A stretch of DNA of 64,000 bases from Trueperaceae bacterium (GCA_965213925.1 OZ243927.1:832001-896000); one strand, 5' to 3'. Shown: positions 15,651 to 62,907, counted from the first letter of the stretch. Notes: a model not told the origin generated them from the letters alone. Made by a program: numbers and translations.

Positions 15651-15682
15651 TTATGCAACGAACCGGGCCGTTCGCGATCTAA
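15651..15682. repeat. 13-6-13 palindromic site, degenerate copy 1
   Basis: TTATGCAACGAAC-CGGGCC-GTTCGCGATCTAA. Confidence 0.55.
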
Positions 15683-15686
15683 AACC

Positions 15687-15718
15687 TTGTGCGTGAGATG
15701 CGCGCGTCTCTTGCAGAA
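15687..15718. repeat. 13-6-13 palindromic site, copy 2
   Basis: TTGTGCGTGAGAT-GCGCGC-GTCTCTTGCAGAA. Confidence 0.9.
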
Positions 15719-15975
15719 GACTTCAGCTATCTGGTCGCCGTAAATATGGTCCGCGCTGCTGAGCAACCGGCCTGACTCGAGCAGGTGCTCCGCCTTCAGC
15801 TACGTACTTGGCGTAGTTTTTGCTCACATAGACGATGTTTTTAAGTTCACACGGTGCAAGTAGCGTCACATCGGAGAGCATCACGGTAAGACCGCTGCGT
15901 TCAACCAGCAAATTTGTTAGAAGATAGACGGTGCTACCCTTCAATTCTCACCAATCCACGCCGTTTTCGTTAACA

Positions 15976-17157
15976 TCAGGTTTCTTCGTCTATAAAAAGT
16001 ACATCGCGCACGAGACTGCGGCTGTCCGCCTGACCGCCAAGCGAACCCGCCAGGGTGCCGAACGCGGAGACGAACAGGCTCAGCTTGATATGGTCGAGCG
16101 TTCGCACCGCCGGGTCTACGGTCGGCCACGTCTCCATAAGTTGGCGCGGAAAAATCGTAGCGACGCCCAAGTAGACGAGCGCGGCGAAGGCGGCAAAAAT
16201 AAACAGCGTCGTCAGCGTAAGACTGAGCAGGATAGCCGCCCCGGTGACGACGCTCGACTCGGCTAAACGTCGGCCCCTGCGCCGGGGTGCGCCGAAAGCG
16301 AAGGCGCGGTAGAGCGCAAACGTTCCCACCGCTACGGACACACCCGCAAACAAGATGAGTTGGTACAGCTCGACGGTGCTTGCTACGTCCCACATCTCCG
16401 GGCTGAAAAACACGACGATGATAACCGACAGCGCTGCGGTAATCAGGGTAGGCAGGCGCGTCGCCAAACGCAGCGGGTTCGCCCTGGCTACAGCGTGAGC
16501 GATACTACGCCAGTCGCTCCGAAGCGTGCGCAGCACGAAACCCCAGCGGTTGCCCTGGCTCGTGCGCTCGTGCGCTTCACGCGGCAGGGCTAGGCGCACG
16601 TGGTTCCGCTGCTCGGGCGTCAGCGTCGCCATCGCGCCCAAATCGTCTACGCTTTCAAAATCGTACATCGCGTTGTGCGCCTCGTCCGAGTGCGGCAAGT
16701 TGAGAAGATGACCGAGCGTATGCAGCAGGAGGTGATTTAGGCGCTGCACGGTGAGCGCCTCGTCCGCTTCTTCCCCCCAAAAAGCGGGCTCGAGCCGCTT
16801 CGTCGAGATGACGCCGATGTTGGTCAGCTGACTCGGCAGGGCGAGGGTGTAAGAAAGTGTGGTGGCGGCGAGGTCGACTTCAGTGACGATGAGGAGAAAG
16901 TCGGCGTTACGCTCGAGTTTTTCGCTCACGCCGAGGCGCAGAAAGTCGAGCGGCGCGTAGGCTCCGGCGGTCGGGGTGAGGTGCGGTCCGTCGAAACGGA
17001 GTAGGTCAACACGCAGCCCTAGTTCGGTGCCAAGCGCCTTGTCAAACGCCGTCACCGCCTCGTTCGCCAGCCTCTCGAAACGCTCCGAGTGCTTGCCCTC
17101 CACGTCTATCGTCATCACACCGACGACGTACTCACGGCTCGAGGGGGTCTTAGACAT
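15976..17157 (-). CDS. Zincin (archaemetzincin-like) domain fused to a 4-TM membrane domain
   Basis: HTLGHLLNLPH..NAMY (HExxH-like with E replaced by T); C-terminal TM helices. Confidence 0.7.
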   Translation of the reverse strand: MSKTPSSREYVVGVMTIDVEGKHSERFERLANEAVTAFDKALGTELGLRVDLLRFDGPHLTPTAGAYAPLDFLRLGVSEKLERNADFLLIVTEVDLAATTLSYTLALPSQLTNIGVISTKRLEPAFWGEEADEALTVQRLNHLLLHTLGHLLNLPHSDEAHNAMYDFESVDDLGAMATLTPEQRNHVRLALPREAHERTSQGNRWGFVLRTLRSDWRSIAHAVARANPLRLATRLPTLITAALSVIIVVFFSPEMWDVASTVELYQLILFAGVSVAVGTFALYRAFAFGAPRRRGRRLAESSVVTGAAILLSLTLTTLFIFAAFAALVYLGVATIFPRQLMETWPTVDPAVRTLDHIKLSLFVSAFGTLAGSLGGQADSRSLVRDVLFIDEET

Positions 17158-17579
17158 GGTTGCTCACTAAGCTGAGTATACGTGACGCGCCTGTGCCAAT
17201 TCGGGACAGTTCCCTCAATCAGAAAATTTCTTACGCTAAGGCAAGCTGCCCCGTTTACAGCATTCGGTTCGTTTTGATCAGTTGTGTCGGGAACGTTCTA
17301 CTTGTGAACTAGACACTCAAACCGTCCGAAGAGCAAAGACAGGGCAGCTACGCTTAGTGCAGCAAAGCTTATTCAGGACTCAACTTATTCGCTTACCGTT
17401 AATTTTTTCCAAGCAGGGAACTACCCCTATTTGCGGTGTCCCTACGCGGAGAGATGTTCACCGAGAACTTGATACGGTGATGGAGCTACAACACGCTTGG
17501 CTGAATGGCGAGCAAGGGCACCGGATTAGCGGTTCAAGGACCACTAGCGCCCTTTTGCTTACTCAAGCTGCATAAGTCC

Positions 17580-17611
17580 TTCTGCGAGAGACGCGCGCGT
17601 CTCTCGCATAC
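17580..17611. repeat. 13-6-13 palindromic site, copy 3
   Basis: TTCTGCGAGAGAC-GCGCGC-GTCTCTCGCATAC; perfect 26-bp palindrome at 17583-17608. Confidence 0.92.
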
Positions 17612-17656
17612 CGCTTATGCAACCCTCGGTCCGTAGTCCTACCTTGTAGATTTCAA

Positions 17657-18187
17657 TCACTCAGCCTGCTGTCGGCTTGGGAACCGCTGCTCGGCGACCT
17701 TACGCAAAAGACGGTGCAGCGTCTCCCGCTCGGTCCCGCTCAAACACCCGTAGGTATCACTATCCGCCGCGTCGATAATGCTCCTACTCTCTTTGAGAAC
17801 GCGCTCACCCCGAGCGGTCAGTACCAGCTCGTAATAGCGTCGGTCATGGGTGCTCTTCACGCGCTGCACGTAACCGAGCGCTTCTAAGTCGTCTACAAGG
17901 CGCACCACGTGGGTGCGGTCCAAGCCTAGGTTCTGACTGATGGCGACCTGTGAGCGATGCTCGCTCTCGGCGATGAGCTTCATCACGCCAAGCTGACGCG
18001 CGTCGATGTGAAGCGGCTCCAACATCTCCTCCAGGACGAGCTGCGCCATCTGCGCGACGTAGCTCAGTACGTACCCCGTCTCCGACGCCAGCGTCTCGGA
18101 GAGGTCGTGAGAGTTGAAGTAGAGGGGCGGCGCGGGCACGCGATTCCGTTTAGGGACTGCTCGAGCATCTTTTGAAGCCTCAGACAT
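17657..18187 (-). CDS. MarR family regulator
   Basis: LGLDRTHVVRLVDDLEALGYVQR...DRR..LTARG. Confidence 0.9.
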   Translation of the reverse strand: MSEASKDARAVPKRNRVPAPPLYFNSHDLSETLASETGYVLSYVAQMAQLVLEEMLEPLHIDARQLGVMKLIAESEHRSQVAISQNLGLDRTHVVRLVDDLEALGYVQRVKSTHDRRYYELVLTARGERVLKESRSIIDAADSDTYGCLSGTERETLHRLLRKVAEQRFPSRQQAE

Positions 18188-18890: not shown

Positions 18891-18900
18891 GCTGCCTCTA

Positions 18901-20184
18901 TCATATTGCGCCTCGGTCGGTATCTCCCCCGCGTAAGTTCAGCATCTTGTCCATAATGACCTCCCCGCGACCAGGTTCACTCCAAGGGCAGACCTCGATA
19001 CAGATCGCGCAGCTCTCGTTGGCGACGAAGTAAGGTGCGCAGCGGTCGAAGTTGATAAACCACCGCTCCTCACCTCGGACCATCTGTTTGGTTTCGAAGA
19101 TGGCTTGCGGCGGGCAGTTGGTCGTGCAAATCTGGCAGGACATGCAGAAATCGTCCACGCCTATGTCGATAGGTACATCGGGTTCCAGGGGCATGTCCGT
19201 AAGTACCGTCGCTAGCCGCACGTTAGAGCCGTAGTCCTTGGTGATCATCGAGTTGTGCTTGCCGAGCTGCCCTAAGCCCGCTGCAATCGCGATGGGCACG
19301 TGTTGCACTTCAGACGTACCGGGCGCGATGTTCGTACACGCTATCGCCGGATAACCCCGACTGCGGATGTATTCGGCAAGACGGATCGCTGCCAAGCCGA
19401 CCTTACGGTAAATGCGAAAGACCTCGGCATGCGTGCGTATCTGGGTCGGGTAGCGCATCTCCTCGCGGTCCATCGGCACAGCGATAGAAATGGCGTACTT
19501 AAACGAAGGCTCGAAACCGTCGAAGAACCACTCATCTTGAGGCTCGGTGATGCCGACTAGAGCCGCGCCGTGCTCCTTGGCAACCGCTTTGACTCGTCCG
19601 CTCATCGCTTTGGGGCTCGTCACCGTCTCCCGCCGCCTCGCGACCGCCCCGACGCGCCGCCGGTCATCCCAGAACAGACGTACAATGACACGGGTAATTC
19701 GCCAAGATGTGAGCGTGAGGAGTACCTGGTGCAAGCCGCCCCAAGCGTAGCTAAAATCGAAGAAGAGGTAGTAGGGCCGACGCTTTTCTGTTTCGTCCAG
19801 ACCGCTTATGACCATACCCGAGACGGGCGGTTTGCGGTAGGCAAAAGGATAGCTGGGCTCCGGGTAGGACGGAAGGGCGACGTCGGGGGACTTGCGGGGC
19901 GGCAAGTCAGTTTTGGGCGACAGGTCCGCGCTGATGTTCGGCAGTGTGTCAAACTGCTGCGTCTCCGCGTCTGGCGGCTTTGGGAGGTCTTCGATCCAGA
20001 TGGTCTCTCCCCTCGAGATTTTCCGCCTGAACTGCCACTTTTGCCACTCACCGACCGTCCAATAGGCGAGTGTTGCCCCGGCGGCAAGCCCGACGCTTCT
20101 CAGCATCCTCCCCGCTATACGGACGTGCTGAGCGAGCTGTTCGGTACAGGTTCGGGGACGTTCAATCTTGACTGCCATCCACAT
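18901..20184 (-). CDS. Reductive dehalogenase/QueG-like 2x[4Fe-4S] protein (paralog 2)
   Basis: AGLGQLGKH, YGSNVRLATVLTDMP, FCMSCQICTTNCP and CAICIEVCPW. Confidence 0.8.
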   Translation of the reverse strand: MWMAVKIERPRTCTEQLAQHVRIAGRMLRSVGLAAGATLAYWTVGEWQKWQFRRKISRGETIWIEDLPKPPDAETQQFDTLPNISADLSPKTDLPPRKSPDVALPSYPEPSYPFAYRKPPVSGMVISGLDETEKRRPYYLFFDFSYAWGGLHQVLLTLTSWRITRVIVRLFWDDRRRVGAVARRRETVTSPKAMSGRVKAVAKEHGAALVGITEPQDEWFFDGFEPSFKYAISIAVPMDREEMRYPTQIRTHAEVFRIYRKVGLAAIRLAEYIRSRGYPAIACTNIAPGTSEVQHVPIAIAAGLGQLGKHNSMITKDYGSNVRLATVLTDMPLEPDVPIDIGVDDFCMSCQICTTNCPPQAIFETKQMVRGEERWFINFDRCAPYFVANESCAICIEVCPWSEPGRGEVIMDKMLNLRGGDTDRGAI

Positions 20185-20256
20185 CTCCTCTAGGTTGGGG
20201 CTTTTTACAAAAAGTCAATACATCTTCGTTACGGTAATGTGACAGGAAAGTCACCT

Positions 20257-21525
20257 TCACGTTTCGGCACTCCCGCGGCGGCTGAGCATCTTGTCCATGA
20301 TGACGTTGCCGCGCCCCGGTTCACTCCACGGGCAGACCTCGATGCAGATGCCGCACCCCTGGTTGGCTGAGAAATAGGGGACGCACTGATCGAAATTGAT
20401 GAACCACCGCTCTTCACCCCGCACCATCTGCTTGGTCTCGAAAATGGCTTGCGGCGGGCAGTTTGTCGTGCAGACCTGGCAGGACATGCAGAAGTCGTCC
20501 ACACCGATGTCCACGAGCTGGTCAATTTCCAAAGGCAGATCAGTCAAGACCGTCGCGAGCCGCACGTTCGCGCCGTAATCCTTTGTGATGATCGAGCCGT
20601 GTTTGCCAAGCTGCCCCAACCCGGCTTCAACCGCAAGGGGAATGTGTAGCACCTCCGTCGTGCCAGGAGAGATGTTCGTGCTAGCCCTGGCGGGATAGCC
20701 TAGGCTGCGGATGTGTTCGGCGAGGCGGATGGCGACGCGCCCCACGTCCTCGTAAATGCGAAAAACCTCCACCATCGCACGCTCGCTCGGCGTGTAGCGC
20801 ATCTCCTCGCGGTCCATTGGCACGGCGACGGAGATGGCATATTTGAATGAGGGCTCGAAGCCCTCGAAGTACCACTCGTCGCGCGGCTCGGTAATACCGA
20901 CTAAAACCGCGCCGCACTCCTTCGCGACCTCTTTGATTCGTGCACTCATCGCCGCTGTATCAGTAACCGGCTGCTGGTCTTTCCAGACCGCCCCGTCACG
21001 CCGCGCGTTATCCCGGAAGATGCGCACGACCGATCGCACGACGCTGAGTGGGATCAGAGTAAAAAACACTTGCGTCAAGCCGCCCCAGGCGTAGCTAAAG
21101 TCGAAGAAGAGGGGGCGAGGTCGGCGCTTCTTTGCCTCGTCTAAGCCGCTGATGACCATGCCCGACACGGGCGGCTGCCGGTAGGCGAAGGGATAGCGGG
21201 GTTCGGGGTAGGACGGCAGGGCGACGTCGGAGGACTTGCGGGGCGACAGGTCGGTTCTCGGTGATAAATCAGCCTGAATATTCGGTAATTCGCCGAACCG
21301 CTGCGTCTCGGCGGAGGGGGGCTTGGGCAGGTCCTCGATCCAGACGGTTTCGCCGCGGGCGCTCGAGCGCGTCAGGTGCCGCTCCTGCCAACGTTTGAGC
21401 GTTCGGCTGGCGAGCGTCACGCCTAGGGCTAAGCTCGTGTTCACTAGCTTGTGCCGCGCGGCGCGAATGCGCTGGGAGAGGTGCTCGGCGCGGGTTTTCG
21501 GATGGTCATTTTTGGGAAGAGTCAT
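20257..21525 (-). CDS. Reductive dehalogenase/QueG-like 2x[4Fe-4S] protein (paralog 1)
   Basis: AGLGQLGKHG, RLATVLTDLP, FCMSCQVCTTNCP and CGICIEVCPW. Confidence 0.8.
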   Translation of the reverse strand: MTLPKNDHPKTRAEHLSQRIRAARHKLVNTSLALGVTLASRTLKRWQERHLTRSSARGETVWIEDLPKPPSAETQRFGELPNIQADLSPRTDLSPRKSSDVALPSYPEPRYPFAYRQPPVSGMVISGLDEAKKRRPRPLFFDFSYAWGGLTQVFFTLIPLSVVRSVVRIFRDNARRDGAVWKDQQPVTDTAAMSARIKEVAKECGAVLVGITEPRDEWYFEGFEPSFKYAISVAVPMDREEMRYTPSERAMVEVFRIYEDVGRVAIRLAEHIRSLGYPARASTNISPGTTEVLHIPLAVEAGLGQLGKHGSIITKDYGANVRLATVLTDLPLEIDQLVDIGVDDFCMSCQVCTTNCPPQAIFETKQMVRGEERWFINFDQCVPYFSANQGCGICIEVCPWSEPGRGNVIMDKMLSRRGSAET

Positions 21526-21540
21526 GGTAGTTTGCGACGG

Positions 21541-23395: not shown

Positions 23396-23427
23396 TTGTG
23401 CGGCAGACGCGCGCGTTCGCCGCGTAA
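23396..23427. repeat. 13-6-13 palindromic site, copy 4
   Basis: TTGTGCGGCAGAC-GCGCGC-GTTCGCCGCGTAA. Confidence 0.85.
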
Positions 23428-24587: not shown

Positions 24588-24598
24588 GCGGTAAAAAA

Positions 24599-24667: not shown

Positions 24668-24765
24668 GAGACAGACGTGCGCTTCTCTCGGACATTGTTC
24701 TACTTGCACCTGGCGCTGGTTGAGCCAGACCCCTATAGTGGGGCAGGGGCAACGAGGAGATCACG

Positions 24766-25415
24766 ATGCGACATGCCTACGGTCTGGACATCCCGCAAAC
24801 TCTCGAGGAGACGCTCGACCCCCAACGTACCGCCCTCATCGTCTACGACATGCAGGTCGGCATTCTGCAACAACTCGCTCACGGCGCGGAGGTCCTCGAA
24901 AAGGTACGGCAGGTGTTAGGAGCCGCCCGCGCGGCCTCCATGCGCATCTTTTTCATGCGGCACATGTCCTTGCCCAAAGAAGCCGGCGGCGTATTCGGGC
25001 TCCACATGGCGATGCGCTGGCAGCACGTGACAAGTGTAGAGGATGTGCAGCCTTGGTTCCTGCGTAACTCGCCGGGCTTTCACATCACCCCGGAACTCGA
25101 GCCCCGAGCGAGGTCGTCTTCGACAAGATCACGATGTCTGCCTTCGAGGGTACCCCGCTCGACATCGCCCTGCGCGACTGCGGCATCAACAGCTTCGCCA
25201 TCGTAGGCGTCGCCACCGAGATAGGCATTGACCCTACGGTGAGGCACGGCGCGGACCTCGGCTACCTGCCCATCGTCGTGCGCGATGCGTGCGGCGCGGG
25301 GCACCACGAGGCGGGGGAGCGCGCTCTGGAGAACCTCGCCTTCGTGGGGGACGCCCTATTTACCGACACCGCCACAATCACCGACCTGCTCGCTAGGTAC
25401 GTAACGACGGTCTGA
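24766..25415 (+). pseudogene. Isochorismatase/cysteine hydrolase, frameshifted near 25110
   Basis: ALIVYDMQ in one frame; VVFDKITMSAF..GVATEIGI..DACG in another. Confidence 0.8.
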
Positions 25416-25438: not shown

Positions 25439-25470
25439 TTCTGCGTGAGATGCGCGCGTTCGTCGCACAA
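25439..25470. repeat. 13-6-13 palindromic site, copy 5
   Basis: TTCTGCGTGAGAT-GCGCGC-GTTCGTCGCACAA. Confidence 0.9.
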
Positions 25471-27540: not shown

Positions 27541-27573
27541 TTCTGCCACGAACGCGCGCCGTTCGTGGCAGAA
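27541..27573. repeat. Palindromic site, copy 6 (7-bp spacer)
   Basis: TTCTGCCACGAAC-GCGCGCC-GTTCGTGGCAGAA, perfect arms. Confidence 0.85.
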
Positions 27574-28919: not shown

Positions 28920-28951
28920 TTCTGCAAGAGACGCGCGCGTCTCTCGCACAA
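28920..28951. repeat. 13-6-13 palindromic site, copy 7
   Basis: TTCTGCAAGAGAC-GCGCGC-GTCTCTCGCACAA. Confidence 0.92.
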
Positions 28952-31476: not shown

Positions 31477-33123
31477 TCAGTCTGCCACCTCAAAGACCTG
31501 CGAGGCTTCCGAGACTTGTCCATAAGGGTCGGTAGAGCGCACCGTCACGGTGTGGACACCAGGCTCGAGGTTGTCGGGCAGGTCAGCCACCCAGATGTGC
31601 GACGAGGGATTCGGCGTCGAAACCTCTTCGTCTGTACCTAGGTAGCGCAAATAGCGGTCCTCCATAAAGGGGTCGGTGCGCAGGGTGTGCTCCATCGGTT
31701 GGTAGTCGCCATCGTCGAGTCGGTACGCCACCTGATGCTGCTCTCCGCCGTCGAAGACGTTGACCACAAGTTGCGGCGCTTGCCACGCGGCGACCTCGAA
31801 CTGGTCAGGGCTGAGCTGGTTTCGGCTCGCGCCCTCTTGCTCCAGCATAATGCGCATCTGGTAGTCTTCGGGCTCGCCCGCCGCCTTGAAGCGCGTGCTG
31901 TAGTCGTCCCCTTCAAACGAGAGGATGTAGTAGCCGTTAGGGTTGCCGTCTTCCATCGTAGTCGCCGGGAGGCCATGCTCGTTCTTGGGTCCGCTCCAGC
32001 CGTTGCCTCTGACTTCGGCCAGAATCTGATGGTGTAGCGGCTCGGGGCCGTTCCAGCCGTGCTCTTGGTCCAAGTACATCTGCCAACTGTTGCTGGTGTC
32101 GTGACCCGAGAGGGTGTAGAGGTGTTCGCGTCCCTCTAAGACGGCGAGTAGGTCGGAAAAATTGACGGTAATAAGGCGCTCGGTCTGATCTACCGCGTCA
32201 GTGGTGAGAGGGATATGGGTGGCGATAACGACGAGCTTGTCGTTAGGGACGAAGCGCAAGTCGTTCTCGAGCCATGTGATCTGCTCCTGGGAGATGAAGC
32301 CCCGGTAGCCCCCCTCGACCTCTCCTAAGTAGTCCACGTTGTCGAGCGCCACGAAGTGCACCTGTCCGTAATCGAACGAATAGTAGGTCGGGCCAAAGAC
32401 GCGCTTGAAAGTATCCGTGGCGTGCTCGTCGGTGAGCGCATCGAAGTTGACGTCGTGGTTGCCCGGTAAGTTCCACCAGGGGATGCCAATCTGCGAGACT
32501 AAGGCGTTATGCCGCTCATAGAGGGCGAGGTTGTCGTTCACCACGTCGCCGACGGTGAGGCCGAAGAGGGCGCTCGAGCCGATCAGTTCGGCGATGACGT
32601 CGTCGCGCAGATAGCTCAACTCTTCGTCGGTGGTCGTCTGCGTGTCGGCGAAGGCGACAGCGTCGAACTGGTTTTGCACCTCAGCAGGAAGAAGCGGAAA
32701 ATCGACCGGCTCTGGCAGAGAACCCGTCGGTTCTATACCGCTAAACTCCAGCTCCGGCGAGCCTTCAGGGTAGTGCAGATAGTAGAACTGGGGAAGTTGG
32801 GCATCGTTGACGGGGACTTCGTAGTTGTTGGGCTTGCTGACGAAAAGGATCATATCGTCTCGAGCAGGCAATTCGTAGCGCCCTTCACCGTCCGTTTGGA
32901 CGACCTCTAAGCCGTTCGAGACTGCGACACCCTCGACGCCAGGCTCACCGTCATCACGCTCGCCGTTCTGGTTCTGATCTTCAAAGACGACGCCCCGAGC
33001 AATCGCTTCACTCGCGCCGCCCGTTGTGTCACCGCCTGTAGCACCGCCAGTCGATTGAGCCTGAACGGTCGCAAGGGTTCCTAAGCTCAACATGCCTACG
33101 GTGATCCATCTCGATAAACTCAT
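31477..33123 (-). CDS. Secreted calcineurin-like metallophosphoesterase (MetallophosN/C)
   Basis: GVVFEDQNQNG..GVAVSNG, ADTQ, VGDVV, PGNHD, HIP, SGH. Confidence 0.88.
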   Translation of the reverse strand: MSLSRWITVGMLSLGTLATVQAQSTGGATGGDTTGGASEAIARGVVFEDQNQNGERDDGEPGVEGVAVSNGLEVVQTDGEGRYELPARDDMILFVSKPNNYEVPVNDAQLPQFYYLHYPEGSPELEFSGIEPTGSLPEPVDFPLLPAEVQNQFDAVAFADTQTTTDEELSYLRDDVIAELIGSSALFGLTVGDVVNDNLALYERHNALVSQIGIPWWNLPGNHDVNFDALTDEHATDTFKRVFGPTYYSFDYGQVHFVALDNVDYLGEVEGGYRGFISQEQITWLENDLRFVPNDKLVVIATHIPLTTDAVDQTERLITVNFSDLLAVLEGREHLYTLSGHDTSNSWQMYLDQEHGWNGPEPLHHQILAEVRGNGWSGPKNEHGLPATTMEDGNPNGYYILSFEGDDYSTRFKAAGEPEDYQMRIMLEQEGASRNQLSPDQFEVAAWQAPQLVVNVFDGGEQHQVAYRLDDGDYQPMEHTLRTDPFMEDRYLRYLGTDEEVSTPNPSSHIWVADLPDNLEPGVHTVTVRSTDPYGQVSEASQVFEVAD

Positions 33124-35149: not shown

Positions 35150-35181
35150 TTCTGCGTGAGACGCGCGCGTCTGTTGCAGAA
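35150..35181. repeat. 13-6-13 palindromic site, copy 8
   Basis: TTCTGCGTGAGAC-GCGCGC-GTCTGTTGCAGAA. Confidence 0.92.
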
Positions 35182-35914: not shown

Positions 35915-36173
35915 ATCAAAACAAATAGCGTTGCCCTCGCACGGCTCAGCGGCCCGCGCTACACCAAAGTTTCAACCCTCTTCACTCACAACCTGACAAA
36001 ACTGTGAAGCCTCTCCGTTAAGTTGACAGCAGGTTACAGCGACTTCTCCTAACATCACGCCACCCTCTGCGCGCTCCGACATCCGTTTCGCGTGGCTCAC
36101 GTTGTCTCGTTCTTCTACTTGTGTCTCGAGCAGGCCGCTGCCAACCCAAATTCAGCACGGCGGAGGTCAACAT

Positions 36174-37901
36174 ATGCGGCGAGTAGGGGTTCTTATCTGT
36201 TTAGCGCTCTTCTGGGGCGCAGCGGCCCAGGACACGGACGGTGACGAAACGGGCGGCAACGTGACAGGCGGCGCAATGAACTCGGGCGGCGATACCTTTA
36301 CGGGCATCGTCTTTGAAGATACCAACGAGAACGGCGCGCGCGACGAGGGCGAGGCGGGCGTCTCGGGCGTGTCGGTCTCGAATGGCGTCCAGGTCATGCA
36401 GACCGGCGAAGACGGTGCGTACGAGTTGCCCATGCGTGAACGTATGATCGTTACCGTGAGCAAGCCGCAGGGCTACATGGTTCCAGTAGACGACAATAAG
36501 GTGCCACAGTTTTTCTATATCCATCAGCCTGAAGGCTCACCCGAAGTCATCCAGGAGTACCGGGGCTTGGAGCCGACCGGCCCGCTGCCTGAATCCGTGG
36601 ACTTCCCCCTCCTCCAAGCCGACGAGCCTGACGCCTTCCGCTTCGTCGTGCTCGGCGACACACAGGTCACGACCCAGGAAGAGCTGACCTGGATGCGCGA
36701 CACGGCCATCGCGGAACTCGGCAGCAGCGAAGCCCTTTTCGGCGTCGCGGTGGGCGACCTCGTCAACGACCCCTTAGGCCTCTACCCGCGCTACCAAGAG
36801 GTGATGGGCGGGTTGCCGTTTCCGGTCTTCTACCTACCGGGCAACCACGACCTCAACTTCGACTCGCCCGACGACCAATATCACTTGGAAACCTACAAGC
36901 GTTACTTCGGCGCGCCGTACTACTCCTTCGACTACGGACAGATGCACTTCGTGGTGTTCGACAACGTGCGCTACAACGTGGACGAGGGCTTCGAGGGAAC
37001 CTACAACGGGCGCATCAGCGACGAGCAGCTCGAGTGGTTCCGCAACGACCTTCAGTTTGTGGACCCCGATAAGCTCATCGTCTTAGGGATGCACATCGCG
37101 CTCACGAACTACGTGGACCGCGACGCCGAAAAGCACCAGGAGACGAACCGCCAAGAGGTCTACCGCATCTTGGAAGAGGGCGGCTTCGAGAACGTGATTT
37201 CGCTGGCTGGGCACTCCCACACCGTCGAGCGCTTCCGCGAGGGCGAGACGTACGACCCCGGCATGGTGACGAACGACGACGGCGAAGAGGTCGAGTCGTT
37301 CGGCTGGGGTACGGTGCCCTTCCCTCAGTTCGTGGCGGGTGCGGTCTGCGGCTCGTGGTGGAGCGGCACCGAAGACGAGTTCGGCATCCCGACGAGCTAC
37401 CAGCGCTGCGGCGCGCCTAAAGGCTACATGGTCTTCGACGTGGAGGGCAACCAGTTCAGCGAACATTGGAAGGTCTCGGGCTCGGACGACGCCATGCACA
37501 TCAGCTTCGACTTCCCGCAAACCGGCTTCAGCGCAGATGGCGGGACACTCAGCGACATGGGCATCATCACGACGGGCGAGCTAGATAACGTCACCGTCGT
37601 CGCCAACGTCTACGCGGGCAGCCGCGACACGCAAGTCGAGATGAGCATCGGCGGCGAGACAATGGAGATGACCTGGAACCAGGACCAGCGCGACCCGCTC
37701 GCCATCAGTTTCCAGCCGCAGGACATGGACTGGCGCTTGACGACGGCGGGCAAGTCATATCACATCTACACGGCCACGCTGCCCGACAACCTAGAGCCGG
37801 GCGTCCACACCATCACGGTGCGCGCGACCGACCCCTACGGTCAGGAGTTTGTGGGCACGAAGGTCTTCGATGTGTGGGCGGACTCGAGCGCCAGCCGCTA
37901 G
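36174..37901 (+). CDS. Secreted calcineurin-like metallophosphoesterase (paralog of 31477..33123)
   Basis: GIVFEDTNENG, GDTQ, VGDLV, PGNHD, AGHSH, GAVCGSWWSG. Confidence 0.88.
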   Translation: MRRVGVLICLALFWGAAAQDTDGDETGGNVTGGAMNSGGDTFTGIVFEDTNENGARDEGEAGVSGVSVSNGVQVMQTGEDGAYELPMRERMIVTVSKPQGYMVPVDDNKVPQFFYIHQPEGSPEVIQEYRGLEPTGPLPESVDFPLLQADEPDAFRFVVLGDTQVTTQEELTWMRDTAIAELGSSEALFGVAVGDLVNDPLGLYPRYQEVMGGLPFPVFYLPGNHDLNFDSPDDQYHLETYKRYFGAPYYSFDYGQMHFVVFDNVRYNVDEGFEGTYNGRISDEQLEWFRNDLQFVDPDKLIVLGMHIALTNYVDRDAEKHQETNRQEVYRILEEGGFENVISLAGHSHTVERFREGETYDPGMVTNDDGEEVESFGWGTVPFPQFVAGAVCGSWWSGTEDEFGIPTSYQRCGAPKGYMVFDVEGNQFSEHWKVSGSDDAMHISFDFPQTGFSADGGTLSDMGIITTGELDNVTVVANVYAGSRDTQVEMSIGGETMEMTWNQDQRDPLAISFQPQDMDWRLTTAGKSYHIYTATLPDNLEPGVHTITVRATDPYGQEFVGTKVFDVWADSSASR

Positions 37902-39666: not shown

Positions 39667-39769
39667 TGGTGCATCCGGTTAATCTCGCGCACGCTTCGGA
39701 AGTGGCTTTCCGTATTGCCAGCGCAAACCACTGAGAAAACACCTTGCAGCGGACTTAAAAGATGCACCA
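39667..39769. mobile_element. 103-bp MITE (copy B)
   Basis: Exact reverse complement of 15548-15650; TTCT on both flanks. Confidence 0.85.
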
Positions 39770-39801
39770 TTCTGCAGGAGACGCGCGCGTTCGCCGCAGA
39801 G
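39770..39801. repeat. 13-6-13 palindromic site, copy 9
   Basis: TTCTGCAGGAGAC-GCGCGC-GTTCGCCGCAGAG. Confidence 0.9.
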
Positions 39802-44762: not shown

Positions 44763-44794
44763 TTCTGCGGCTAACGCGCGCATCTTACGCGTAG
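44763..44794. repeat. 13-6-13 palindromic site, copy 10
   Basis: TTCTGCGGCTAAC-GCGCGC-ATCTTACGCGTAG. Confidence 0.8.
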
Positions 44795-46120: not shown

Positions 46121-46152
46121 TTCTGTGCGAGTTGCGCGCATCTCGCGCAGAA
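46121..46152. repeat. 13-6-13 palindromic site, copy 11
   Basis: TTCTGTGCGAGTT-GCGCGC-ATCTCGCGCAGAA. Confidence 0.85.
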
Positions 46153-49724: not shown

Positions 49725-49767
49725 TTCTGCAAGAGACGTGTGCGAGACGCGCGCAACTCTCGCAGAG
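49725..49767. repeat. Palindromic site, copy 12, with internal 11-bp duplication
   Basis: TTCTGCAA-GAGACGTGTGC-GAGACGCGCGC-AACTCTCGCAGAG. Confidence 0.8.
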
Positions 49768-51693: not shown

Positions 51694-51725
51694 GTGTGCG
51701 ACAGTAGCGCGCGTTCGTCGCAGAA
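51694..51725. repeat. 13-6-13 palindromic site, copy 13 (next to the recombinase)
   Basis: GTGTGCGACAGTA-GCGCGC-GTTCGTCGCAGAA. Confidence 0.85.
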
Positions 51726-51815
51726 CACCCACTGCCCTTCAAAAACGATTCAAAGCAGACCTCCGTGCAGACTACAGCTCGGAGGTTTTTTATGGACGAA
51801 TAAGAGACACTCATA

Positions 51816-52682
51816 TTGACAAATTGTGTTGAGGAATACCTGAAAGCTCGTAATCTGGACGGCTACAGTGACAAAACGCTCTATTCCTACAGGCTGCATC
51901 TAAATCGTTTGACCGCAGATTTGGGCAATGCCACTCCTATCGACATTATCAAGCTCGAACATCTACGTTCTCACCTCACCAGCCTGACGCATCTGCAAAC
52001 CTCAAGTTTGGCGAACAAGGTCCGCGCCCTTAAAGCCTTTTTCAAGTGGCTCTACGAGGAGGAGATATTGGAGCGCAACCCCGCACTGAAGCTGAGGGAG
52101 CCGCGCTTACCCGCGAGAATCCCTAAAGCGCTTTCGGTTGAAGAAGTTGAGCTGCTGCGTGACGCCTGTGAGAGTTTATTGGAGCACGCCTTAGTCGAGT
52201 TCTTCTTCGCCACCGGCTGCCGTGTGAGCGAAATTCACCAACTGGACCGCATCGACCTCGACTGGGTGCGGCGCAGCGCAGTCGTGCTGGGCAAGGGTAA
52301 TAAGGAGCGCGAGGTGTACTTCGGAGCAAAAGCCGCGCTGTGGCTCAAACGATATCTCGACAGCCGAACGGATAGCTCTTTGGCGCTATTCGTTACGAAG
52401 CGACGAAGACGCCAGCATAGCGGGGCTTTAGAGCATCAGCGTCTCAGCACGTCGCAGATACAACGCATCTTTAAGCGTGTGGCGCGGCGGTGCGGCTTGG
52501 AGGAGAAAGTAACCCCTCACGTGCTGCGCCACACGCTCGCAACTCTTCTGCTAAACCAAGGTGCACCGATCGCTGCCGTGCAGTCCATCCTCGGGCACGC
52601 CTCGCCCACCACAACACAGCTCTATGTCAACCTCTCCGGTGAGTCGCGGCAGATGCTCTACAAAAGGCATTTCCCGCAGTAA
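51816..52682 (+). CDS. Tyrosine recombinase (XerD-like, not IntI)
   Basis: N-terminal SAM-like domain; complete catalytic set TGCRVSE, GKGNKER, HVLRH, LGH, TTQLY. Confidence 0.92.
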   Translation: MTNCVEEYLKARNLDGYSDKTLYSYRLHLNRLTADLGNATPIDIIKLEHLRSHLTSLTHLQTSSLANKVRALKAFFKWLYEEEILERNPALKLREPRLPARIPKALSVEEVELLRDACESLLEHALVEFFFATGCRVSEIHQLDRIDLDWVRRSAVVLGKGNKEREVYFGAKAALWLKRYLDSRTDSSLALFVTKRRRRQHSGALEHQRLSTSQIQRIFKRVARRCGLEEKVTPHVLRHTLATLLLNQGAPIAAVQSILGHASPTTTQLYVNLSGESRQMLYKRHFPQ

Positions 52683-53364: not shown

Positions 53365-53385
53365 AACGTCAGAAGGGCTGAGCCA

Positions 53386-53417
53386 TTATGCGTGAGACGC
53401 GCGCGTCTCTTGCAGAA
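53386..53417. repeat. 13-6-13 palindromic site, copy 14
   Basis: TTATGCGTGAGAC-GCGCGC-GTCTCTTGCAGAA. Confidence 0.92.
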
Positions 53418-53438
53418 GAAATCAGCAAGTATAACTCT

Positions 53439-53873
53439 TTAAGAGGTGGTTGCATCCTTCGGAGGGTAACGCCCTATTGCCTGCAAAACCTCCCGCTCCA
53501 GCAGCCTTTCGCGGACGTTGAACTGGAGCAGGCGTTCGGTGACGCGGGCGATATCGGTGAGCGGCATGATCTTCACCTGGTCGAGTTCGAAATGCTCAGC
53601 CCACAGGTCCACTCGCGGATTGTAAAAGCGCGCGAACGCCTCTGTCTTCCAGTCGATCGAGCCGATGTCGCTTCCCTTAGCGCGATTACAGACCACGCAG
53701 GCGAGTGCTAGGTTGTCCTCTTCGGTCCGCCCGCCGTGTTTCTCGCTGATGATGTGATCGATTTGCATTGCGTAGTAGCTGTCGTCTTCGTGGATCAAGC
53801 AGTATTCGCAGCATCTATTCGCCTTAGCTAAAACGCGCTGGCGCAGGTCCGCCGGGATATACGTTTTACTCAC
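53439..53873 (-). CDS. HNH endonuclease
   Basis: CEYC, IDHII..HGG, NLALACVVCNRAKG. Confidence 0.9.
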   Translation of the reverse strand: MSKTYIPADLRQRVLAKANRCCEYCLIHEDDSYYAMQIDHIISEKHGGRTEEDNLALACVVCNRAKGSDIGSIDWKTEAFARFYNPRVDLWAEHFELDQVKIMPLTDIARVTERLLQFNVRERLLEREVLQAIGRYPPKDATTS

Positions 53874-54099
53874 TCAGCAATTGCCTAGCTTTGGCTTTCG
53901 CTAAGCGCATAACGTGCTCGAGCTGCATATACTGGTCGAGCTCGCGACGCTCGTCCTGGGATAACCCCTGCGCCTTCTCTTGTTCGATAAGTTCGGCGAC
54001 CCGTGCTTGTGCGCCCTCAGAGGGGCGGAAGGAGACAACCCCAGAGGGATTTGCACCTGCGATCAGGTCAACGATTTCTTGGTAAGCGAGGGTTGCCAT
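53866..54099 (-). CDS. Small helical protein, putative antitoxin for the HNH
   Basis: FRPS..AQARV..L..K...ELD.Y..LEH; overlaps the HNH gene; leaderless TATAAT at 54106-54111. Confidence 0.7.
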   Translation of the reverse strand: MATLAYQEIVDLIAGANPSGVVSFRPSEGAQARVAELIEQEKAQGLSQDERRELDQYMQLEHVMRLAKAKARQLLSE

Positions 54100-54131
54100 A
54101 ACGCTATTATACCTCAGCTTGAGAAATGGGA

Positions 54132-54163
54132 TTCTGCGTGTGATGCGCGCGTTCGCCGCACAA
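54132..54163. repeat. 13-6-13 palindromic site, copy 15
   Basis: TTCTGCGTGTGAT-GCGCGC-GTTCGCCGCACAA. Confidence 0.9.
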
Positions 54164-54216
54164 AATTATCGAAGAGAACAAACGATGCGATGAGAAACTA
54201 CTTTGTGCCCCAACAT

Positions 54217-54678
54217 CTACCGTTTGAGCAGTCGCGGGTCATAGTTGAACGCTTGCGCCTCGCCGATCTCTACTCGCCCAGCATCGGGATGGTTCGGATT
54301 AAAAAGGTAGTTCCGTTCCGCCGCGACCACACGGCTCGGCACCGCGAGGAGCACCGACGCGTTACGCTTGACCCAAGCGTCCCCGATCGCTTGAGTGGTA
54401 GGTAGACCTTCAGGCTCAGCCCAGTTCTCGGACAAGCTCTCAGGCGACACGTTCAGTAGAAGCGTTTCGCCAAAGGTAATTGGAATAGCTGTATAAGGCT
54501 CAAGCGCACGCTCGTAGTCGATGTGGACGAGTAGCTCCAAAGCTGCGAGGGCTAAACTGCTCGCTAGATAAACGACTGCCGTGCCCGCTGAGTTCCAGCG
54601 ACCTCCGTAACGCCGCGCCCCCTCACCGTCGAATGCGGATGCAGCCCATTTAGGCGCGACGAGCCGCCAGGCTTTCAG
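54217..54678 (-). CDS. RES-domain NAD+ phosphorylase toxin
   Basis: AWRL..FDGEGARRYGGRWNS..YLASSLALAALE..VPS..ERNYLFNPNHP; start extended to CTG overlapping the antitoxin stop. Confidence 0.88.
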   Translation of the reverse strand: MKAWRLVAPKWAASAFDGEGARRYGGRWNSAGTAVVYLASSLALAALELLVHIDYERALEPYTAIPITFGETLLLNVSPESLSENWAEPEGLPTTQAIGDAWVKRNASVLLAVPSRVVAAERNYLFNPNHPDAGRVEIGEAQAFNYDPRLLKR

Positions 54679-55124
54679 TAGAACACTCCATGCTCAACAC
54701 GGTGTAGTAGATGCTCGACCTCGCGCGCTCCCAGCTCACTATGGGCGAGTTCGAAAGGCGTTTGTCCGCCAAAAACTGGGCGCGGTGTCTGCATCCAACG
54801 CCGAGCTAAATCTTTGTCTCCAATGACCTGAGTCGCTAGAGCATAGAGTTCGGCAAAGCGCACCAACCGCTCGGATGGGCTGGACTCGAGTGGCGCACCC
54901 GCCTCTTCACGCCGCTGAACTGTGCGTAAGGAGAGACCAACTGCCTTCGCGAGGTCCTCGCGGGCAATACCTGCAGTCTTGCTGAACTGATCAAAGGCAG
55001 CAGCCGATAAACCTGAGCGCACCGTGCGGATACGCTCGAGCGGGGTACTCTGCGCCAGACCTAAAGCTGCATCCCAGATGCTCTGCTCCGCCGGGGGTGG
55101 GGTGAAATCGAAAACAGCATCCAT
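54675..55124 (-). CDS. Xre/MbcA/ParS antitoxin
   Basis: GLSLRTVQRR..SERLVR..ARRWMQTP..FGGQTP..G.REVE..L.RVEHGVF. Confidence 0.88.
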   Translation of the reverse strand: MDAVFDFTPPPAEQSIWDAALGLAQSTPLERIRTVRSGLSAAAFDQFSKTAGIAREDLAKAVGLSLRTVQRREEAGAPLESSPSERLVRFAELYALATQVIGDKDLARRWMQTPRPVFGGQTPFELAHSELGAREVEHLLHRVEHGVFY

Positions 55125-55265
55125 AGCTAACCTCCAGACTACTGTCAATAATTATACGACAGAAGTCGCGTCAAGGCAGACTATTTATCGACATGTATGG
55201 TCAGTACACCTAACTGTCTTGAGGGGCTGATGTAGCGTATGCATGACCGCCCAGCCTACGCCTCG

Positions 55266-55297
55266 TTCTGCGGTGAACGCGCGCGTTTGGCACACAC
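55266..55297. repeat. 13-6-13 palindromic site, copy 16
   Basis: TTCTGCGGTGAAC-GCGCGC-GTTTGGCACACAC. Confidence 0.8.
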
Positions 55298-55352
55298 GGG
55301 TCACAACAACCCTCGAAGCCTTGTTTATAACTCGAAATGGGTTAGTCAGCGA

Positions 55353-56734: not shown

Positions 56735-56787
56735 GGTTTTCCTCCATCTGTCAGAGCTTCGGGCGCACCCTGGCTACTCCTATAAGT

Positions 56788-57780
56788 GCGACCGGCGCGG
56801 GAACAGATGGAACTCGACGCCCGCGACGTGTGGCGCGCGCCAACTATCAAGAGGTGAAAGAGGGGCGCGGCACCGAGGCGGGCGGCGTGTTCCTAGACAT
56901 TTCACATAGGGACGCCGACTTCAAGAGGGGAGCGCCTCGGCACCGAGGCGGGTTCAAAGACGGCGTGTTCCTAGACATTTCACATAGGGACGCCGACTTT
57001 ATCCGGGAGCGCCTCCCTAAGATCGTTCGCCAGTTCAAAGAGCAGGGCGTGGACATCACCGCTGAGCCGATGGAGGTCGCCCCGACCGCGCACTACGCGA
57101 TGGGCGGCATCAAGATAGATTTCGGGACGGGCGAGACGGACGTGCCGGGGCTCTTCGCCTGCGGCGAGGCCACCTCGGGGGTGCATGGCGCGAACCGCTT
57201 AGGGGGTAACTCGCTCTGCGAGACGGTGGTCTTCGGGAAGGTTGTCGGCGCACATGTGGCGGGCGAGATAGGCGCGCTGCCCGAGCCGAACGTTGACGAG
57301 GACGAGGTGGACGCCGAACTCGCTCGGCTCCGCGACCTGAGCGAGGCAGATGGAGATACAGAACCCGACGCGCTGATAGACGAACTCGGCAACCTGCTCT
57401 GGGACCGCGCGGGGATCGTCCGCAACCAGGTGGGGCTCGAGCAAGGGCTAGAGGAGCTGGCTACGTTGCGCGAACGCGCTCAAAACCTCCGCGTCGAAGG
57501 GGGCGTGACGGGTCACGACTTCGAGTTCGCCAACAACTTACAGTTCATGCTGCTCGCAGCCGAAGCTATCCTGCGCGGCGCGCTCATGCGGGACGAGTCG
57601 CGCGGCGCGCACCACCGCGACGACGCCCCGGAGGAGAAAGAGGAGTGGCAACAGAACATCCTCTACCGCAAAGAAGGCGGGCAGATGGCGCTGACGACCG
57701 AGGCGGTCGGTGAAGTACCCGAAGGGATTCAGCACGCCATAGAGGAGGGGCACACGCTCGAGTATCATCACCTGGAGTAG
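56788..57780 (+). pseudogene. 5'-truncated SdhA/FrdA/NadB-family flavoprotein fragment
   Basis: PTAHYAMGG, HGANRLGGNSL, RDESRGAH; N-terminal half missing; internal duplication. Confidence 0.8.
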
Positions 57781-60488: not shown

Positions 60489-60680
60489 TTCCCCCTAGCA
60501 GCGTGGTGACGAAAGCTACGGTTCAGTTTAGCAGGTGGTCGGCTAAACGGTTCTCCCCCGAGTTAAGAGTAGACGGGCGTACTTTCGCGCCTATCCCGTT
60601 CCTCTACGCTGGACGGGTCGAAGGGGCAGGGTGCATCTCGGTATCTCACTCCTGACAACTTCAACCTAGGGGGAGTAGCG

Positions 60681-61469: not shown

Positions 61470-61494
61470 CTCACCGGTCAGCGATTGCTGTCAG

Positions 61495-61524
61495 GTTCAG
61501 GGGGAGGCGCACCTCCCCCTGAAC
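61495..61524 (+). terminator. Hairpin terminator
   Basis: GTTCAGGGGGAGG-CGCA-CCTCCCCCTGAAC. Confidence 0.65.
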
Positions 61525-61660
61525 TATTGTTGACCCTGCTGTTAACTCCGTCAAAGACAGCCGTAGTCTTCGAACAGGGCTGCGTATCAAACTGTAGTGG
61601 GTGCGTTCGTAGCACCGTCTCGAGCGCAATCTGCGCCGCTCAATCTCGAAAGCAGCGTTT

Positions 61661-61777
61661 ATGTCACCTCTTAAATTACTCGTCCCTTTAGACGGCACTG
61701 ACTTCAGCCAACGCATCATCCCTCACCTCACGCGCCTTTTTCGCCCTGAGGATATCCAGGTGCACCTCCTCCCCTGA
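61661..61777 (+). pseudogene. Universal stress protein N-terminal remnant
   Basis: MSPLKLLVPLDGTDFSQR then early stop. Confidence 0.6.
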
Positions 61778-62007
61778 TCCAACCGCTTAAAGGCGAAGTC
61801 TGACCACGTCGTGCTCAACGCCGCCTAGCTTGTCGCGCTCCTAGAGCCGATGCACACTAGCACGCGGACCTGCTGGGACAGGTGCCGCTTTCAGAACGGA
61901 GAAGTCAAATTCTCCTATAACGATCGCCGTATCTGCGTACGTTCTGCTTCACGCGTGAACGCGTTTTAGGCCGAAATGCGTGGTCAATGACTGGCCTCCG
62001 CCTCCTT

Positions 62008-62517
62008 TCAAGACTTGCGCGTGGCGGCTCTTCGTATGTACACAGTCCACCCTCGCCGCCGGACCGGAACACCGGGCAGGCTGGGGATCAGCCGATCAGC
62101 GACGACACCGGTGACGACCGCGTAAACGGCTTTGTGCAGCAGGTCGATCGCCTGCTCGTCCAGCGGCCACGTCCACGGCGGTGCGACGACGCCCGTGGCG
62201 TTTTCCAGGGTTTGGTCGTTGAGCAAGCGCAGATTCAGAAACAGGAACGACCCGACCGGGCCGCGCAGCCCCCGCTCAGCCATCAGCCCGCGCGCCGCAC
62301 CCAGAAGGATGCCCTGACCCCAGTGCATGCCTCGGTTCAGCCATAGGCGTTCCTCGTCGGGCTTCTGTGCGAGCCCTAACAGCCGTTCTAGCGTGTGGGC
62401 TGGCACGTACGAATCCGGTCGGCGGGTGATCGCCTGCTCGAGCTTCTCAGCGGCGGTCATCGCCGCGACCCCGACCAGACCCGCCGCTAGTCCGCGCAGC
62501 GCCGCGTTCTTCATCAC
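62008..62517 (-). CDS. Membrane hypothetical protein
   Basis: GLAAGLVGVAAMT..EKLEQ, MHWGQG, LLHKAVYA; RBS GGAGG. Confidence 0.7.
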   Translation of the reverse strand: MMKNAALRGLAAGLVGVAAMTAAEKLEQAITRRPDSYVPAHTLERLLGLAQKPDEERLWLNRGMHWGQGILLGAARGLMAERGLRGPVGSFLFLNLRLLNDQTLENATGVVAPPWTWPLDEQAIDLLHKAVYAVVTGVVADRLIPSLPGVPVRRRGWTVYIRRAATRKS

Positions 62518-62875
62518 CTTACCTCCGCTCTACCGGTGTAGTAGTAGAGGTCCTTTTTCCGTATCGCCAGGTTGATATACAAAGTCAAAGCCGCCTCCCC
62601 CTTCTTTCGCTCATGATACGCAAGGGGCGTTCTCTGGACCTTGCGCCACAACCCATAGTCCGGCGGTTCAATCAATGGTGCAGAGAGTCCGAAGCAAGGG
62701 GATTGGTCCCGTTGGACACAATTAGAAGACATAGACATGGTTGGGGAGAGGATGGGGAGAAGGCAACCGCGTGCGACATCGGCAAGCGTCCTTTCCACGG
62801 TCAGTTCGCCGACATCTTGTCCGTGTTCAAAATCTTTAGGCGTGGGAACGGACCAAAGGCTGCCTAGGCTCTAGC

Positions 62876-62907
62876 GCAGGAGTTTAACGCGCGCGTTCGC
62901 TGCACAG
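62876..62907. repeat. Palindromic site, copy 17 (left arm degenerate)
   Basis: GCAGGAGTTTAAC-GCGCGC-GTTCGCTGCACAG. Confidence 0.65.

Follow-up and report, generated by a model that had tools for sequence, protein, structure and literature searches.

What kind of element divides about 40 kb of the genome of a Trueperaceae bacterium into approximately 15 gene modules, and how might such modules have been brought together and rearranged? The question arises from a DNA stretch of 64,000 nucleotides (GCA_965213925.1 OZ243927.1:832001-896000), the whole of which we call the window, where copies of a 32-bp imperfect palindrome, organized as two 13-nt arms around a 6-nt center (13-6-13), punctuate a series of genes that includes one for a tyrosine recombinase. 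The answer that we consider probable, from the comparison of sequences, is that the 32-bp elements are the core recombination sites of a single, dedicated Xer-like recombinase of 296 amino acids, which is itself carried as a module of the array.

The first step is to establish that the repeat exists. Its copies were sought in the window with a half-site pattern allowing up to three mismatches on both strands, using 100 dinucleotide-preserving shuffles as the null. There are 19 half-site matches, against a shuffle mean of 0.05 and a shuffle maximum of 1, and the 13-6-13 palindrome claimed in the first-pass annotation is therefore real. A position weight matrix (PWM) for two half sites, built from the half sites of the sites themselves, assigns at least 26 bits to every full site of the window, compared with a maximum of 10.3 over 20 shuffles of the same sequence. 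The copies are listed below, none of them being assigned to a strand.

15651 to 15682, degenerate site copy, its center CGGGCC instead of GCGCGC, missed by the PWM
15687 to 15718, site of 13-6-13 form with center GCGCGC, PWM 22.0 and 23.1 bits
17580 to 17611, site, found by pattern and PWM
23396 to 23427, site with unlike arms (..CAGAC / GTTCG..), pattern and PWM
25439 to 25470, site with unlike arms that bounds the PhoD module upstream, pattern and PWM
27541 to 27573, site variant with a 7-nt center, downstream boundary of the PhoD module
28920 to 28951, site, pattern and PWM
35150 to 35181, site, pattern and PWM
39770 to 39801, site with a MITE (see below) at its outer edge, pattern and PWM
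44763 to 44794, site bounding the ArsR-pair module, PWM
46121 to 46152, site, the other boundary of the ArsR-pair module, PWM
49725 to 49767, site proper at 49736-49767 with an additional, duplicated half arm (49725-49735) in front of it, PWM and sequence inspection
51694 to 51725, recombinase-proximal site, about 65 nt 5' of the conserved ATG, PWM
53386 to 53417, site closing the recombinase module, pattern and PWM
54132 to 54163, site with unlike arms, pattern and PWM
55266 to 55297, site with a weaker right arm, pattern and PWM
62876 to 62907, half site consisting of center and right arm, PWM

Altogether the count for the window is 15 full 13-6-13 sites, plus a single variant with a 7-nt center and a single degenerate copy. 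Thirteen of the 17 positions annotated earlier hold a full 13-6-13 element at exactly the start given, and inspection of the sequence shows how the remaining four deviate. The copy at 27541 is a good palindrome but with a center of 7 nt (GCGCGCC), whereas that annotated at 49725 is a true site whose start is offset by the extra half arm. This duplication, of 11 nt ahead of the left arm, may be the scar of an aberrant exchange. The copy at 62876 retains center and right arm but lacks the left arm (PWM 1.5 and 15.4 bits), and possibly represents the edge of the array or a decayed copy; at 15651 the arms are recognizable but the center is not, indicating a degenerate or variant copy. In the PWM scan positions 1-15650 contain no site, and beyond 55297 the half site at 62876 is the sole copy. 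All copies lie between Pfam-supported genes, in agreement with the earlier statement that every copy is intergenic; the site at 54132 overlaps an open reading frame (ORF) without family assignment, 53980-54405, and nothing else. The genes flanking 16 window sites form six convergent, six tandem and four divergent pairs.

What is conserved in such sites? We pooled 44 of them, namely 15 from the window, without its degenerate copy and the one with a 7-nt center, 24 from the metagenome-assembled genome (MAG) CBDBZX and five from the chromosome OZ243956.1. Conservation resides in the outer TTSTGC, the inner A-Y and the center of the site, with seven mid-arm positions that are variable, and the center is GCGCGC in 43 of the 44 sites. 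The stretch ACGCGCGCGT is an alternating purine-pyrimidine run, which might favor an unusual DNA structure. Flanking positions carry about 0.1 bit; since conservation is confined to the 32 bp and stops at their edges, the site does not form the terminus of some larger element. None of the 44 sites is a perfect palindrome over its 13-nt arms, most having three to six mismatches per 13 arm positions. Moreover, complementarity between the two arms of a site averages 3.68 of the 7 variable positions versus 3.66 for shuffled pairs, a value reached by 2353 of 5000 shuffles. The arms are thus no more complementary than random pairs, which argues that there is no selection for a hairpin. Arm variants of the GAGAC-, CGAAC-, CTAAC- and GAGTT-type combine freely, arm classes do not alternate and no polarity of the site is detectable in this set; judging from their sequences, each arm appears to be an independent half site, or else the arms have been reassorted.

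A role of the element as hairpin, RNA or terminator was discarded, given that arm complementarity is not in excess, that no T-run follows the sites and that the window contains no Rfam family. The same features bear upon the proposal that the palindromes act as operators, as insulators or in the manner of terminators, being recognized by a regulator at the ends of transcription units, with only a secondary link to module boundaries. The sites do lie at the edges of transcription units, and their strong dyad symmetry is typical of what dimeric DNA-binding proteins recognize. However, their arms do not co-vary, they are not followed by a T-run, they produce no Rfam match, and the modules have no regulator in common, possessing instead their own MarR, ArsR, TetR or LysR. 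Since this proposal also leaves unexplained the exact break at the center of a 99.9% identical duplicate and the constant association with the recombinase, both described below, we deem it very improbable.

How are the sites distributed among bacteria? We scanned one genome per species (185,579 species, the window's own genome not being in the collection) with a strict pattern of 21 nt, which recovers 8 of 16 window sites, 6 of the 24 sites in CBDBZX and 3 of the 5 in OZ243956.1, so that the results of the genome-wide scan apply to the strict motif only. The scan returned 41 loci, 31 of which are single matches in unrelated GC-rich taxa; within the 426,509 nt of these 31 loci there is no PWM match beyond the seeded one. 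More than one strict match occurs in two genomes only, both of them MAGs of Trueperaceae, in the Deinococcota. In contig CBDBZX010000008.1, of 783 kb, all six strict matches lie at 30.7-97.5 kb, hence in 67 kb, while in the complete 4.50-Mb chromosome OZ243956.1 all three lie within two small clusters. The PWM finds 24 distinct sites in the 68 kb of CBDBZX covered, on either side of 63-82 kb and as far as 107.5 kb of the contig, a count to be read as at least 24, and 3 plus 2 sites in the two clusters of OZ243956.1. Median spacing between sites is approximately 1.9-2.0 kb. As to the window, its recombinase protein is recorded on a contig of 4.58 Mb, and a tRNA gene as integration target was rejected, there being none in the window.

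This distribution is critical for the possibility that the palindromes are repeats of the repetitive extragenic palindromic (REP) kind without a dedicated recombinase, among which homologous or microhomology recombination reshuffles modules that include the recombinase as mere cargo. The intergenic position of every copy is what one would expect of such repeats. Yet the even spread across the genome that they should have is not seen, for the strict matches are clustered, not dispersed, in both CBDBZX (6/6) and OZ243956.1 (3/3). Also speaking against REP-like repeats are the lack of excess arm complementarity, the location of 4 of 16 sites in divergent promoter regions, and the absence of any transposase family of IS200/Y1 type among those listed for the 74 proteins of the window and 122 of its relatives.

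The second step concerns the recombinase, whose gene and immediate surroundings comprise the following features.

51759 to 51786, plus strand, invariant block of 28 nt, identical in four recombinase loci, with a predicted hairpin
51792 to 52682, plus strand, Xer-like tyrosine recombinase gene, with conserved ATG at 51792, TAA at 51801-51803 and an open frame from TTG 51816 encoding 288 amino acids
52698 to 53364, plus strand, toxin-antitoxin pair of VapB-like (DUF2281) and VapC (PIN) proteins, sharing the module with the recombinase

The ORF 51816-52682 matches Phage_int_SAM_4/1 and Phage_integrase in Pfam, thereby combining a SAM-like N-terminal domain with the catalytic domain. Its best matches among solved structures are XerD (1a0p) and XerA (4a8e), with which it was aligned; the alignment with 1a0p contains the catalytic motifs RvSE, GKGxKER (as GKGsKER), HvLRH and LGH...Y, as expected of a simple tyrosine recombinase of Xer type with its residues R-K-H-R-H-Y. 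Among curated models those of XerC, XerD and XerA give it the highest scores, yet it reaches the cut-off of none: 207 bits versus a cut-off of 335 for XerC, 200 versus 330 for XerD, 197 versus 220 for XerA and 96 versus 267 for XerS, while the integron-integrase model TIGR02249 gives 112 bits against 265, from C-terminal stretches only, and PRK15417 gives 65 against 435. About 40 protein clusters, with members nearly all of 296 amino acids, share 72-97% identity with the recombinase of the window, and after them, with 50-59% identity, come relatives among which are proteins of Alicyclobacillus and Sulfobacillus. Homologues on plasmids were set aside, the best having 43% identity on Bacillus-type plasmids in a context of no use.

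The window was compared with three clusters of relatives, L011 of CBDBZX and, from OZ243956.1, its two clusters L015 and L034. Homologues of the recombinase with 87-88% amino acid identity are present in all four site clusters, and in 4/4 loci a site, degenerate in L015, precedes the conserved ATG by about 65 nt. The association of the sites with the recombinase at 51816 that had been proposed for the window consequently extends to every cluster examined, including two recombinase copies in a single chromosome (OZ243956.1). In L034 the recombinase and a gene for a YhcG-type nuclease form a minimal module of 2.1 kb between two sites. This constancy, and the two-site module in particular, further detracts from the REP-like interpretation. 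Homology among the recombinase loci begins at the first bases of the recombinase-proximal site (51694 in the window). Between site and gene the block of 28 nt is identical in the window (51759-51786), L011 (4286-4313), L015 (2593-2620) and L034 (12074-12101), in the midst of DNA that is about 78% identical, and its predicted hairpin would pair the Shine-Dalgarno GGAGG. We considered an autoregulatory half site in this block and rejected it, the best arm score being -1.4 bits compared with a median of 14.6 for true arms.

The third step is the comparison of modules between arrays. Three modules, containing PhoD, the ArsR-like pair and MarR-DUF2461, are common to the arrays of the window and CBDBZX, in different order and orientation. 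The PhoD module, with 95.6% amino acid identity, has a site on each side in both genomes but different neighbors; the MarR-DUF2461 module, with 82-85% amino acid identity, follows a site in both genomes, and its orientation with respect to those of PhoD and the ArsR pair is opposite in the two; of the ArsR-like pair the window has one copy and CBDBZX has two. Homology of the PhoD block ends at the last base of the site at 27541, whereas that of the ArsR block begins at 44771 or 44776, in the center of the site at 44763, and ends at 46149, inside the site at 46121. The clearest case is that of the two ArsR-pair copies within CBDBZX: they are 99.91% identical over 1108 bp, which implies a recent duplication, and they cease to match precisely after the final base of GCGCGC, with inner arms matching at 13/13 positions and outer arms at 6/13. 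Rearrangement of modules at sites, as anticipated in the first-pass annotation, is hence borne out in part: most ends of shared blocks coincide with sites, one of them exactly with GCGCGC, but some breakpoints lie elsewhere.

Several facts weigh against the sites being served by the recombinase of the array, and these off-site breakpoints are among them. PhoD and MarR blocks end 57-204 nt short of the site on the 5' side, in upstream or downstream spacers that have diverged; the block of the choice-of-anchor protein has its start at 43127, a long way from the sites; in L018 the ArsR paralogue lacks a site at one of its ends. Between orthologous modules the inner arms are no better conserved than the outer ones, both being near the background of 8.05 +/- 2.08 of 13, and the general claim that inner arms travel with the module was consequently dropped, as the effect is seen only in the recent pair of paralogues. 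Even the exact break in that pair falls inside the longest shared stretch, ACGCGCGCGT, and could stem from homologous recombination. Additionally, homology of the recombinase genes stops at the stop codon, after which each locus has a different partner without an intervening site: VapBC in the window (52682/52698), RES-Xre in L015 (3516/3539), the YhcG nuclease in L034 (11181/11179) and Xre-RES in L011 (3438/3421). These varying partners are not explained by the site model; the idea that the recombinase gene ends in a cryptic 3' site was not accepted, as the best half site there scores 8.2 bits, is confined to the window and falls within coding sequence. Finally, the recombinase is damaged in both large arrays and intact, with 296 amino acids, only in the small clusters of OZ243956.1 (L015 and L034). 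In the window codon 4 is an in-frame TAA (CAA in L015) and the reading frame is open again from an in-frame TTG, the catalytic motifs being kept as they are in L015 and L034, while L011 has lost the C-terminal region of the tyrosine (L011 3438-3520). It must then be assumed that there is an intact copy elsewhere, that a host enzyme intervenes or that activity belongs to the past.

Do these difficulties favor other explanations? REP-like repeats gain from the off-site breakpoints, from the damaged recombinases of the large arrays and from the coincidence of the center break with the longest stretch common to all copies; set against the clustering of the motif and the company of the recombinase, this leaves them unlikely. 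Alternatively, the elements could be true tyrosine-recombinase sites used by another enzyme, either host XerC/XerD or a paralogue, with the adjacent gene being inactive or serving its own module only. The 13-6-13 geometry fits this possibility as well, and the recombinases of the big arrays are defective, yet CBDBZX has the recent duplication with 99.9% identity. According to PMC13141974, the dif modules of Acinetobacter need no recombinase borne by a module; a dif sequence for Deinococcota was found neither in the accessible text of PMC3025954 (0 mentions) nor in that of PMC9764985. On the other hand, one consensus for both arms suits a single recombinase better than a XerC/XerD pair, in 4/4 loci about 65 nt separate the recombinase gene from a site, and there is no second recombinase gene among the 196 proteins scanned, 74 of the window and 122 of the relatives. 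We therefore hold the use of the sites by another enzyme to be quite unlikely.

Returning to a dedicated recombinase that is borne by the array, the proposed mechanism would operate as follows. A single Xer-like enzyme would bind the two 13-bp arms of the site and exchange strands across the invariant palindromic crossover region of 6 bp, GCGCGC, with cleavage predicted at its borders. Because the palindromic center is the same everywhere and both arms follow one consensus, any two sites could synapse and recombine in either alignment, with three possible outcomes: the modules lying in between would be cut out as circles, each with one site; such circles would be inserted again at any other site; or a segment would be inverted. 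Over long times these events would build and reshuffle a chromosomal array of self-contained modules, with a median size of about 2 kb, which toxin-antitoxin modules would stabilize. Such a mechanism would explain why arm variants combine freely, why modules change their order and orientation, why one break falls exactly at the center and why gene and site are always linked. The earlier proposal of sites for the adjacent recombinase in an array of modules is thus supported by the clustering of the sites, the co-occurrence of the recombinase and the shared blocks, from which we infer that the recombinase would bind and cut the sites, where it may cleave them, that circular intermediates may form and that the system may be active at present.

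The sites are also preferred neighbors of a mobile element, a 103-nt sequence resembling a miniature inverted-repeat transposable element (MITE) that occurs twice in the window.

15548 to 15650, plus strand, MITE-like element of 103 nt with 9-bp terminal inverted repeats and a TTAT duplication, abutting the outer edge of the degenerate site at 15651
39667 to 39769, minus strand, second MITE copy, 100% identical, with a TTCT duplication, abutting the outer edge of the site at 39770

Both copies, in opposite orientations and with their own 4-bp duplications, have inserted precisely against a site's outer edge, which is far from chance. Insertion sequence (IS) elements target REPs, and the targeting of sites by the MITE is therefore a further point for REP-like repeats. 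A parallel is also offered by elements of the IS1202 family, which, as stated in PMC10132070, target or insert beside pdif sites. The 41 loci fetched contain no copy of the MITE and the window contains no parent IS, its 9-bp terminal repeat being found in exact form only at the two copies.

Which genes are stored between the sites? Apart from the recombinase module, the array in the window contains the following modules, none being assigned to a strand.

15719 to 51693, eleven modules between successive sites, from Pfam/profile annotation
module 1, archaemetzincin-like gene
module 2, MarR, DUF2461, two reductive-dehalogenase-like genes and a flavoprotein
module 3, zinc alcohol dehydrogenase (Zn-ADH) and split isochorismatase
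module 4, PhoD
module 5, EEP nuclease/phosphatase
module 6, phosphoesterase cluster of 4 genes
module 7, metallophosphoesterase and redoxin
module 8, ArsR, low-molecular-weight (LMW) phosphatase, MIP channel, oxidoreductase and choice-of-anchor protein
module 9, ArsR-like pair
module 10, hydrolase, epimerase, SDR and TetR
module 11, MarR and CAAX protease
53418 to 55265, two small modules, one with an HNH endonuclease, the other with an Xre antitoxin and an interrupted RES toxin

Modules comprise 1-5 genes on both strands, and a common type combines a regulator with an enzyme or transporter. Many have their own regulator of the MarR, ArsR, TetR or LysR kind and, by inference, their own promoters. 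The cargo includes phosphatases and phosphoesterases, an arsenic-type gene set, two reductive-dehalogenase-like paralogues and IS fragments, as well as many toxin-antitoxin or nuclease units (VapBC, HNH, and RES-Xre in the window, CBDBZX and OZ243956).

Some of these genes present peculiarities of their own. The reductive-dehalogenase-like genes, 18901-20184 and 20257-21525, are tandem paralogues with 74-83% DNA identity, the one that was scanned scoring 142 bits with the reductive-dehalogenase model, for a cut-off of 160. Two metallophosphoesterase paralogues, 31477-33123 on the minus strand and 36102-37901 on the plus strand, are inverted across the site at 35150 and share stretches of 114-143 nt with 74-77% DNA identity. 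Two overlapping ORFs in different frames (24766-25206 and 25134-25415) divide the isochorismatase domain between them, probably as the result of a frameshift. Equally, the RES toxin gene at 54217-54678, 3' of the Xre antitoxin, is probably inactivated: it matches profile positions 47-157 only and has a stop codon in the upstream frame. Further along, a perfect direct repeat of 39 nt (56883-56921 and 56961-56999, 78 nt apart) resides in an ORF corresponding to the C-terminal parts only of a succinate-dehydrogenase or fumarate-reductase flavoprotein. Transposase genes of the IS982 and IS630 families, 10905-11711 and 14404-15405, are situated immediately beyond the array's left edge in the window, and a transposase of IS6/IS240 type (L012 4440-5177) lies just ahead of the first array site of CBDBZX.

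In evolutionary terms, integrons and the dif modules of Acinetobacter are the two known routes by which accessory genes are stored and reshuffled between tyrosine-recombinase sites. If our interpretation is right, a comparable system would exist in an unrelated phylum, with its own recombinase, sites free of polarity and operons as units, and such an architecture would have evolved repeatedly. It would also explain a hypervariable region of Trueperaceae that is endowed with phosphatases, metal or arsenic functions, dehalogenase-like genes and toxin-antitoxin pairs, and would provide a compact pair of recombinase and 32-bp site that is directly testable in vitro. We give roughly even odds to the broader idea that this is a third, independent platform for gene capture in bacteria: a chromosomal array of Deinococcota with a module-borne single Xer-like recombinase, polarity-free duplex sites of 13-6-13 form that all have the invariant GCGCGC, and promoter-bearing multi-gene modules to be excised, inserted and inverted whole, in which the module of recombinase and toxin-antitoxin would be a mobile seed founding new arrays, as the minimal two-site element of OZ243956.1 might exemplify. 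The full-text literature that we searched, a scope that left out supplementary files and subscription journals, contains no account of such arrays in Deinococcota.

How, then, does the system relate to those already known? With REP sequences or bacterial interspersed mosaic elements (BIMEs) and their REP-associated tyrosine transposases (RAYTs), it shares numerous short, imperfect, intergenic palindromes that are targeted by mobile elements. It differs in that the copies are clustered, show no selection for hairpin pairing and are associated with a tyrosine recombinase, with no Y1 transposase among the 74 plus 122 proteins scanned; instead of hundreds of dispersed copies, the 4.50-Mb chromosome has three matches, counting the strict motif only. 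The likeness is closer with the single-recombinase Xer systems (XerS/difSL, XerH/difH and XerA/dif), which also combine one Xer-like enzyme with a nearly symmetric site. Their genes typically adjoin the site, forming one genetic module, according to PMC5357621, and a site lies next to the gene in 4/4 of our loci. Those systems, however, have one site per replicon, for dimer resolution, rather than tens of arrayed sites, and our recombinase, unlike the orthologues of XerC, XerD, XerA and XerS, scores below every Xer cut-off of NCBIfam.

Sedentary chromosomal integrons resemble our arrays in linking a tyrosine recombinase gene to a long array of exchangeable units with imperfect palindromes, in having toxin-antitoxin units inside the array and in varying their content between relatives. 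The recombinase, however, is not IntI (112 versus 265 bits with TIGR02249), the models of XerC and XerD giving higher scores (207 and 200), and its gene is one of the modules within the array instead of occupying an end and facing attI/Pc. Whereas attC is a site of 57-141 bp that recombines as a folded single strand, with conserved pairing of its arms, ours are of duplex type, with 32 bp and arms that do not co-vary; whereas integron cassettes are mostly single ORFs without promoters, in one orientation downstream of attI/Pc, our modules contain multiple genes with their own regulators, in both orientations.

With the dif modules of Acinetobacter the arrays share sites of about 30 bp of tyrosine-recombinase type with a 6-bp spacer, which separate self-contained accessory modules, regulators with an enzyme or transporter and toxin-antitoxin pairs included, in varied order and orientation, and which insertion sequences target. 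In PMC13141974 the rearrangements of dif modules require identical spacers and the system is called unique to Acinetobacter. Ours, in contrast, form chromosomal arrays of 16 to at least 24 sites in Trueperaceae (Deinococcota), on a 4.50-Mb chromosome and a 783-kb contig, without the plasmid backbone of Rep_3/OrfX that carries the Acinetobacter modules, which host XerC/XerD move, and every cluster includes a dedicated gene for an Xer-like recombinase, beside which lies a site of its own. A pdif site resembles the host dif and has distinct XerC and XerD arms; its 6-bp center is found here too, but both arms follow one consensus around an invariant, palindromic GCGCGC, so that C/D polarity and a rule of alternation appear to be lacking. 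Arm classes do not alternate, whereas in dif modules C and D modules take turns and adjacent sites are inverted. By its defining features the system appears to be neither an integron nor a set of dif modules, and resembles both in its working only.

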